A DNA stretch of 64,000 nucleotides from Escherichia coli. Lineage in GTDB: Bacteria; Pseudomonadota; Gammaproteobacteria; Enterobacterales; Enterobacteriaceae. The position numbers and the translations under genes are program-made. Numbering within the stretch: position 1 is the stretch's first letter; each line of letters opens with the position of its first letter. Shown piece by piece: positions 61,643 through 61,937 of the stretch. The notes under the pieces were generated by a model. The model did no database searches. It saw only the letters and a program-made list of their open reading frames with translations, and was not told the origin of the DNA. The DNA lies in the NCBI RefSeq assembly GCF_024298765.1, contig NZ_CP101210.1; one strand, given 5' to 3'.

Positions 61643-61862
61643 TACATAATCCTTCATTTATTTTAATTACAGTGATCCCTGTGAATATTACATTTACAAT
61701 ATCTATTAATTCGCCAGATATATATGCAAGCACCATCATTTACTAAAACAAGTAAATAAACGAGAGATGGCCTTTGTAAAAGGCAAAATTAAGATATAGC
61801 AAACAAATAGATCACATTGAATCTAATCGGTTTGGCTCTGGTGATGGCTACAGAAGGGCAAA

Positions 61863-61937
61863 TCAAGGGCGGTGATCGACAATCTTGTTGTCAATATTAA
61901 ACCATTTTGAGGTCACACATATATGTAAGATATTCAT
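61863..61937 (-). CDS. tnaC: tna operon leader peptide TnaC (24 aa)
   Basis: Reverse complement encodes MNILHICVTSKWFNIDNKIVDHRP* exactly, including the critical Trp12 and C-terminal Pro24. Confidence 0.93.
   Translation of the reverse strand: MNILHICVTSKWFNIDNKIVDHRP

Follow-up and report, generated by a model that had tools for sequence, protein, structure and literature searches.

Gene content and genomic setting

The minus strand of the window, i.e., of the whole 64,000-nt stretch of Escherichia coli DNA analysed here, carries the leader gene tnaC, consisting of 24 codons and a UGA stop (61863..61937), the complete tnaC-tnaA spacer (61643..61862), the tryptophanase gene tnaA (60227..61642) and tnaB (58888..60135), which encodes a low-affinity tryptophan permease. 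The original prediction had located an intact leader and spacer at 61643-61937, and these limits proved exact, the one correction being that the module lies on the minus strand. tnaA is co-oriented with tnaC and starts 220 nt after it, at 61642, with ATGGAAAAC, which translates as MENFK. Its product of 471 amino acids is identical to that of K-12 at 470 positions (TIGR02617, 1007.8 bits) and is the form annotated in RefSeq genomes; an alternative tnaA open reading frame (ORF) of 476 amino acids starts five codons upstream, at 61657, with an ATG that overlaps the Shine-Dalgarno (SD) sequence GAAGGA. The TnaB protein (415 aa) matches K-12 at 411 residues (NF007235, 925.7 bits). Both genes are intact, so that the regulatory module has functional cargo. 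In strain 2014C-3338, in which the leader region is 100% identical over 641 nt and three differences occur in 5.4 kb, a 1-nt insertion (window equivalent 60120) frameshifts tnaB, which is annotated as a pseudogene in that strain; the window, by comparison, has an intact tnaB.

Several complete E. coli genomes match the final 20 kb of the window at 100% identity. One of these, strain 14EC020 (100% over the 20 kb), has a RefSeq-annotated tnaC at 17863-17937 of the matching locus, corresponding to window 61863-61937, and the gene order yidC-mnmE-tnaC-tnaA-tnaB-mdtL. The identity over 20 kb, together with the agreement with the RefSeq tnaC, indicates that the window represents ordinary chromosomal DNA of E. 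coli. Of 5426 complete E. coli genomes, 5420 contain a 641-nt region around tnaC, which is chromosomal in every case and has tnaC, tnaA, and mnmE annotated under its full-length matches.

Further features were detected outside the leader. Between tnaB and mdtL is a 124-nt imperfect palindrome (58756-58879, minus strand) that contains GTGAATCCCCAGGAGCTTAC...AAGTAAGTGACTGGGGTGA, which we take to be the core of the ERIC/IRU enterobacterial repeat; the Rfam family 'Vibrio RNA AS5' matched this palindrome at a sub-threshold 47 bits (gathering score 96). A partial rrn operon occupies positions 1-3918 (minus strand; 23S 1-2031, tRNA-Glu 2216-2291, 16S 2377-3918), DnaA boxes and 13-mers cluster in an oriC-like arrangement around 19737-19982, and a match to the STnc410 sRNA (188 bits) lies at 30286-30443 on the minus strand.

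The TnaC leader peptide

Minus-strand translation of 61863-61937 yields MNILHICVTSKWFNIDNKIVDHRP followed by a stop; the reading begins with the ATG at 61937, opening ATG AAT ATC, and closes CGC CCT TGA, the TGA being at 61865-61863. The peptide matches K-12 TnaC and the TnaC chains of published ribosome structures at every residue compared (24/24 residues for PDB 6i0y chain 7 and 20/20 for 4uy8), and is recognized by both the Pfam Tna_leader model PF08053 (71.1 bits, cut-off 25, E = 3.7e-20) and the NCBIfam equivalog TIGR02616 (44.3 bits, cut-off 23.55), a similarity far beyond chance. The tnaC assignment thus draws on translation, profile HMMs, PDB identity and the RefSeq-annotated coordinates. 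No Rfam family was found over the leader, either in an E-value search of 58000-64000 or when the entire window was searched at gathering thresholds; this result is uninformative, because the element works through its peptide, and we know of no Rfam model for the tna leader.

Residues W12, D16, I19, and P24 have been named as critical in TnaC (PMC10941005). The corresponding codons in the window are TGG (61904-61902), which is the single Trp codon, GAC (61892-61890), ATT (61883-61881) and CCT (61868-61866); P24 is the last sense codon and is directly followed by the RF2-read UGA. W12, D16, and P24 followed by a stop, as predicted, are therefore all encoded on the minus strand (TGG, GAC, CCT, then TGA), and the codons for W12 and P24, substitution of which would have refuted the prediction, are both intact. 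The leader had also been described as exact, which holds for the peptide at all 24 residues but not for the DNA, where two synonymous changes relative to K-12 MG1655 were detected (F13 TTC>TTT at 61899 and K18 AAA>AAG at 61884). Since the peptide is the one used in structural and biochemical studies (PMC8429421), tnaC would be expected to mediate L-Trp-dependent ribosome arrest at its stop codon.

Promoter and upstream region

Upstream of the tna core promoter is a perfect TGTGA-N6-TCACA motif, TGTGATTCGATTCACA, located by a regular expression at 62013..62028 (minus strand), that represents the CRP site and is identical in K-12 and all sampled alleles; catabolite repression of tna is stated in the literature (PMC8429421). 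A consensus scan assigned the core promoter to 61970..62002 (minus strand), with a -35-like TTCAGA and a -10-like TATTAT/TATACT matching at 9 of 12 positions, a score that by itself is not above shuffle expectation. Transcription would be predicted to start near 61961. A +1 at 61961 gives a leader of 319 nt, which we take to be the length of the K-12 leader. The tnaC SD sequence, GAGGA (61948..61952, minus strand), precedes the ATG by 10 nt and is unchanged in K-12. A single base of the 5′-UTR (61954) differs from K-12; neither the CRP site nor either SD sequence is disrupted.

The zone around the -10 element (61970-61987, minus strand) reads TATTATACT in the window versus TGTAATAAT in K-12, a difference of about seven bases. 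The K-12 version has the look of a TGn extended -10, and the window version is common to most sampled E. coli; both here and at 61954 it is K-12 that departs from the prevailing state, which the window shares.

Further upstream, just 3′ of mnmE, is a near-perfect long hairpin, GCGAAGCCGCATTCTGAC/TCAGATGCGGCTTCGC, with a T-rich tail (62135-62170, minus strand). It is presumably the mnmE terminator, insulating the tna promoter, and was not picked up by a simple terminator scan. In EC21Z-151 and O157:H7 Z869 the region upstream of the tna CRP site is occupied by an insertion instead of the mnmE intergenic region; the insertion carries a ShET2/EspL2-family type III effector gene, which is frameshifted in the O157 strain. 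In contrast to these two strains, the window retains a K-12-like mnmE-tnaC junction. The plus strand opposite the leader contains short ORFs only and nothing exceeding chance, promoter-like sites such as that at 61912-61940 numbering two against a shuffle mean of 2.6.

The tnaC-tnaA spacer

The spacer, which constitutes the region of RNA polymerase pausing and Rho termination, had been estimated at about 220 nt and measures exactly 220 nt, running from 61862 to 61643, after which tnaA starts. The K-12 spacer is likewise 220 nt and contains pause sites (PMC7186457). When 61600-62200 of the window (minus strand) was aligned with MG1655, as the original prediction had proposed as a check, a contiguous block of 106 nt (61883-61778) was found to be identical, comprising tnaC codons 19-24, the stop codon, and 85 nt of adjoining spacer. 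Both the boxA-like sequence CGCCCTTGA and the rut zone fall within this block.

The boxA-like sequence is at 61863..61871 (minus strand), where it overlaps tnaC codons 23-24 and the stop codon. Its assignment as boxA and its placement at the tnaC end reportedly derive from work by Konan and Yanofsky in 2000. Both boxA and rut had been predicted to lie in the spacer, which is supported for rut by K-12 identity but not for boxA, given the overlap with the end of tnaC. The rut site has been described as “immediately adjacent” to the tnaC stop codon (PMC8429421; PMC10941005), and the stop-proximal 85 nt that hold the rut zone in the window (61778..61862, minus strand) are those aligned without change to K-12.

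The spacer is 68% A+T. The expectation that it should be C-rich and G-poor is borne out weakly: the excess of C over G is modest (over the first 40 nt, 13 versus 7; over the first 110 nt, 25 versus 15), and a comparable excess is seen in about 10% of all same-strand (minus) windows of equal size. A rut site could not be recognized from composition alone, and rut was therefore identified by identity with the characterized K-12 sequence. Folding of the spacer RNA revealed no significant overall secondary structure (z = -0.85 versus shuffles), which is compatible with Rho loading and tracking.

Seven substitutions distinguish the spacer from that of K-12, at nt 86 and 93 (61777 and 61770) and at nt 159, 161, 165, 167, and 169 (61704-61694), all of them at least 86 nt past the tnaC stop. 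Nt 86 and 93 belong to a small hairpin (61770..61784, minus strand) that reads GCCUUU-UGC-AAAGGU in K-12 versus GCCUUU-UAC-AAAGGC in the window, so that a loop G is replaced by A and the closing G.U pair by G-C. The 46 nt immediately preceding tnaA, with its SD sequence, do not differ from K-12.

The spacer has been reported as a binding target of ribosomal protein L4 (PMC7186457) and to pair with the Spot 42 RNA (PMC5748587). Spot 42 pairing was evaluated by an 18-nt sliding-window scan, as unrestricted RNAduplex returned meaninglessly long duplexes, and the three best local pairings had equal predicted energy in K-12 and the window.

The spacer also contains GATCTATTTGTTT (61801-61813, minus strand), which corresponds with one mismatch to the oriC 13-mer consensus GATCTnTTnTTTT and includes a GATC Dam site. 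There are four such matches in the window, and at least four were obtained in 7 of 100 shuffles; the match is treated as a chance occurrence in A+T-rich sequence.

Variation among E. coli alleles

Variation was examined in a sample of ten alleles, consisting of the window and nine other genomes picked down the identity ranking. The six variable positions in tnaC (61899, 61893, 61887, 61884, 61878, and 61872) are all third-position and synonymous, with no nonsynonymous change, and the TnaC protein has the accession WP_001364348.1 in every annotated genome of the sample. Variable positions in the spacer number 24, and are distributed unevenly: the central 123 nt account for 23, the stop-proximal 51 nt for one, and the final 46 nt for none. 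Two-thirds of them (16/24) fall in a middle-to-distal part at 61689..61750 (minus strand), which takes in the five K-12/window substitutions at 61704-61694 and is followed by the invariant 46 nt before tnaA (61643..61688, minus strand), with the SD sequence GAAGGA at 61655-61650. All seven spacer differences between the window and K-12 are in the variable middle, with 61777 and 61770 being polymorphic sites in the species. Such a pattern would be expected from the known mechanism, with constraint on the peptide, the Rho-loading zone, and the tnaA initiation region; the spacer RNA between the constrained zones is under little constraint.

A natural polymorphism of the tnaC stop codon was also observed. 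Alleles with UAA were counted in 1758 of 5426 complete E. coli genomes (about one third), using a 42-nt query that only TAA-stop alleles could seed, and mostly have UUUACCC after the stop versus UUUGCCC; a K-12-type UGA query matched 3139 of the 5426 genomes, and the window has UGA. Both RF1 and RF2 recognize UAA. According to published work, RF1 is an efficient catalyst of TnaC release (PMC8450073). Taken together, these two properties raise the prospect that a UAA allele might respond differently to tryptophan, and that UAA-stop lineages might show altered Trp induction. A limited literature search returned no paper clearly addressing the tnaC UGA/UAA polymorphism.

Comparison with characterized leaders

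The tna leader is a textbook example of a nascent-peptide sensor of a small molecule coupled to Rho-dependent attenuation. Its K-12 tnaC leader and spacer were reportedly the subject of studies by Stewart and Yanofsky in 1985 and by Konan and Yanofsky in 2000. The K-12 leader (b3707; structures 4uy8 and 6i0y; TnaC-ribosome models in PMC8429421) shares with the window the peptide, the UGA stop, the 220-nt spacer with its boxA-like sequence and first 85 nt, the CRP site, both SD sequences, and the gene order mnmE-tnaC-tnaA-tnaB-mdtL, and differs in two synonymous codons, position 61954, seven bases of the distal spacer, and several bases in the -10 zone. For most of these differences it is K-12, not the window, that has the minority state among the sampled alleles. 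The TAA-stop E. coli allele has the same 24-residue peptide (WP_001364348.1) and 220-nt spacer architecture, but ends in UAA, mostly with UUUACCC, unlike the window with its UGA and UUUGCCC.

In Proteus vulgaris, tnaC, said to have been characterized by Kamath and Yanofsky in 1997, reportedly also forms a leader upstream of tnaA, with conserved Trp, Asp, and Pro residues and a Rho-dependent spacer. It differs in having a longer peptide and another spacer, the window peptide being of the E. coli type. The ornithine-sensing upstream ORF speFL of speF operates on the same principle, in that ligand-dependent arrest of the leader ribosome at termination shields a rut site (PMC12360218; PMC8429421), but it employs an unrelated peptide, another ligand, and RF1 rather than RF2, and is absent from the window.

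Alternative interpretations

A reading in which the leader is present but quantitatively retuned, the spacer substitutions having shifted pausing or termination, L4 binding or sRNA pairing and hence the basal level or inducibility relative to K-12, draws on the seven spacer differences, two of which alter the small hairpin and convert its closing G.U to G-C, and on the reports that the spacer is a target of L4 (PMC7186457) and of Spot 42 (PMC5748587). However, these differences are all confined to the stretch that varies freely in E. coli, most of the window states are common to other lineages, and the three best Spot 42 sites have unchanged predicted energy. The substitutions also fall outside the L4-affected regions, as far as the fragment numbering of the published work can be mapped, and the L4 effect persisted when one or the other half of the spacer was deleted (PMC7186457). 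Retuning of this kind is hence unlikely. That the lineage-specific changes in particular (61770 with 61777, and the window-specific 61704 and 61696) measurably alter Rho termination, pausing, or L4 or sRNA control is slightly more doubtful still; if the spacer substitutions did matter, the tryptophan threshold or the basal indole production of this lineage would differ from that of K-12.

Whether the spacer encodes a second small protein was considered for a 36-codon ORF (61739-61629, minus strand) that overlaps the tnaA start and is open in the window and, as read from the alignment, in K-12. No SD sequence precedes this ORF, a 1-nt deletion at 61731 frameshifts it at codon 3 in IAI39, and three of the five K-12/window differences within it change an amino acid (G>D, A>V, and D>N). 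On the grounds of the frameshift, the missing SD sequence, and the nonsynonymous variation it was rejected as probably not a gene, and a coding role for the spacer appears very improbable. Least credible of all, to the point of being negligible, is the notion that tnaC is a decayed leader or a short ORF that occurs by chance and plays no regulatory part; this is already refuted by the 24/24 peptide identity with its Pfam E-value of 3.7e-20, the prevalence of the region (5420/5426 E. coli genomes), and the restriction of tnaC variation to synonymous sites.

Predicted mode of regulation and implications

With very high confidence, we interpret the locus as the native leader that regulates the tnaCAB operon of E. 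coli, most likely working exactly as in K-12. Each of its sequence elements is present, intact, and conserved, and since every one is identical or equivalent to its K-12 counterpart, the published mechanism provides the best explanation of the locus. The prediction that everything needed for tryptophan-induced antitermination is in place agrees with the match of the listed sequence elements to the K-12 module (peptide, UGA, 220-nt spacer, 106-nt identity, and intact tnaA and tnaB), and the window holds no sequence evidence that contradicts a K-12-like leader. The observation as originally made is confirmed, and its interpretation is supported with small corrections.

By analogy with published work on K-12, from which ribosome stalling, Rho action, and induction would be extrapolated to this strain, regulation of the operon may be envisaged as follows (attenuation mechanism described in PMC8429421, PMC10941005, and PMC12360218). 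Transcription would proceed from the CRP-dependent promoter, and a ribosome would translate the 24 codons of tnaC. When tryptophan is low, RF2 would release TnaC at the UGA and the ribosome would depart, exposing the boxA/rut zone, upon which Rho would load at rut and terminate transcription where RNA polymerase pauses within the 220-nt spacer. When tryptophan is high, free L-Trp would be accommodated in the exit tunnel beside nascent TnaC (W12, D16, and I19), and RF2-dependent hydrolysis of TnaC-tRNAPro, with P24 at the peptidyl-transferase centre, would be blocked. The stalled ribosome would then cover rut so that Rho could not load, and tnaA and tnaB would be transcribed.

The locus is a textbook element in its usual place; it is already known, and this copy adds nothing new, so that its value is one of correct annotation only. 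The strain should be indole-positive, with a tryptophanase that is inducible by tryptophan and repressible by glucose, as normal. The population comparison, more interesting than the allele of the window itself, shows purifying selection on the peptide and on the rut-proximal and tnaA initiation zones.
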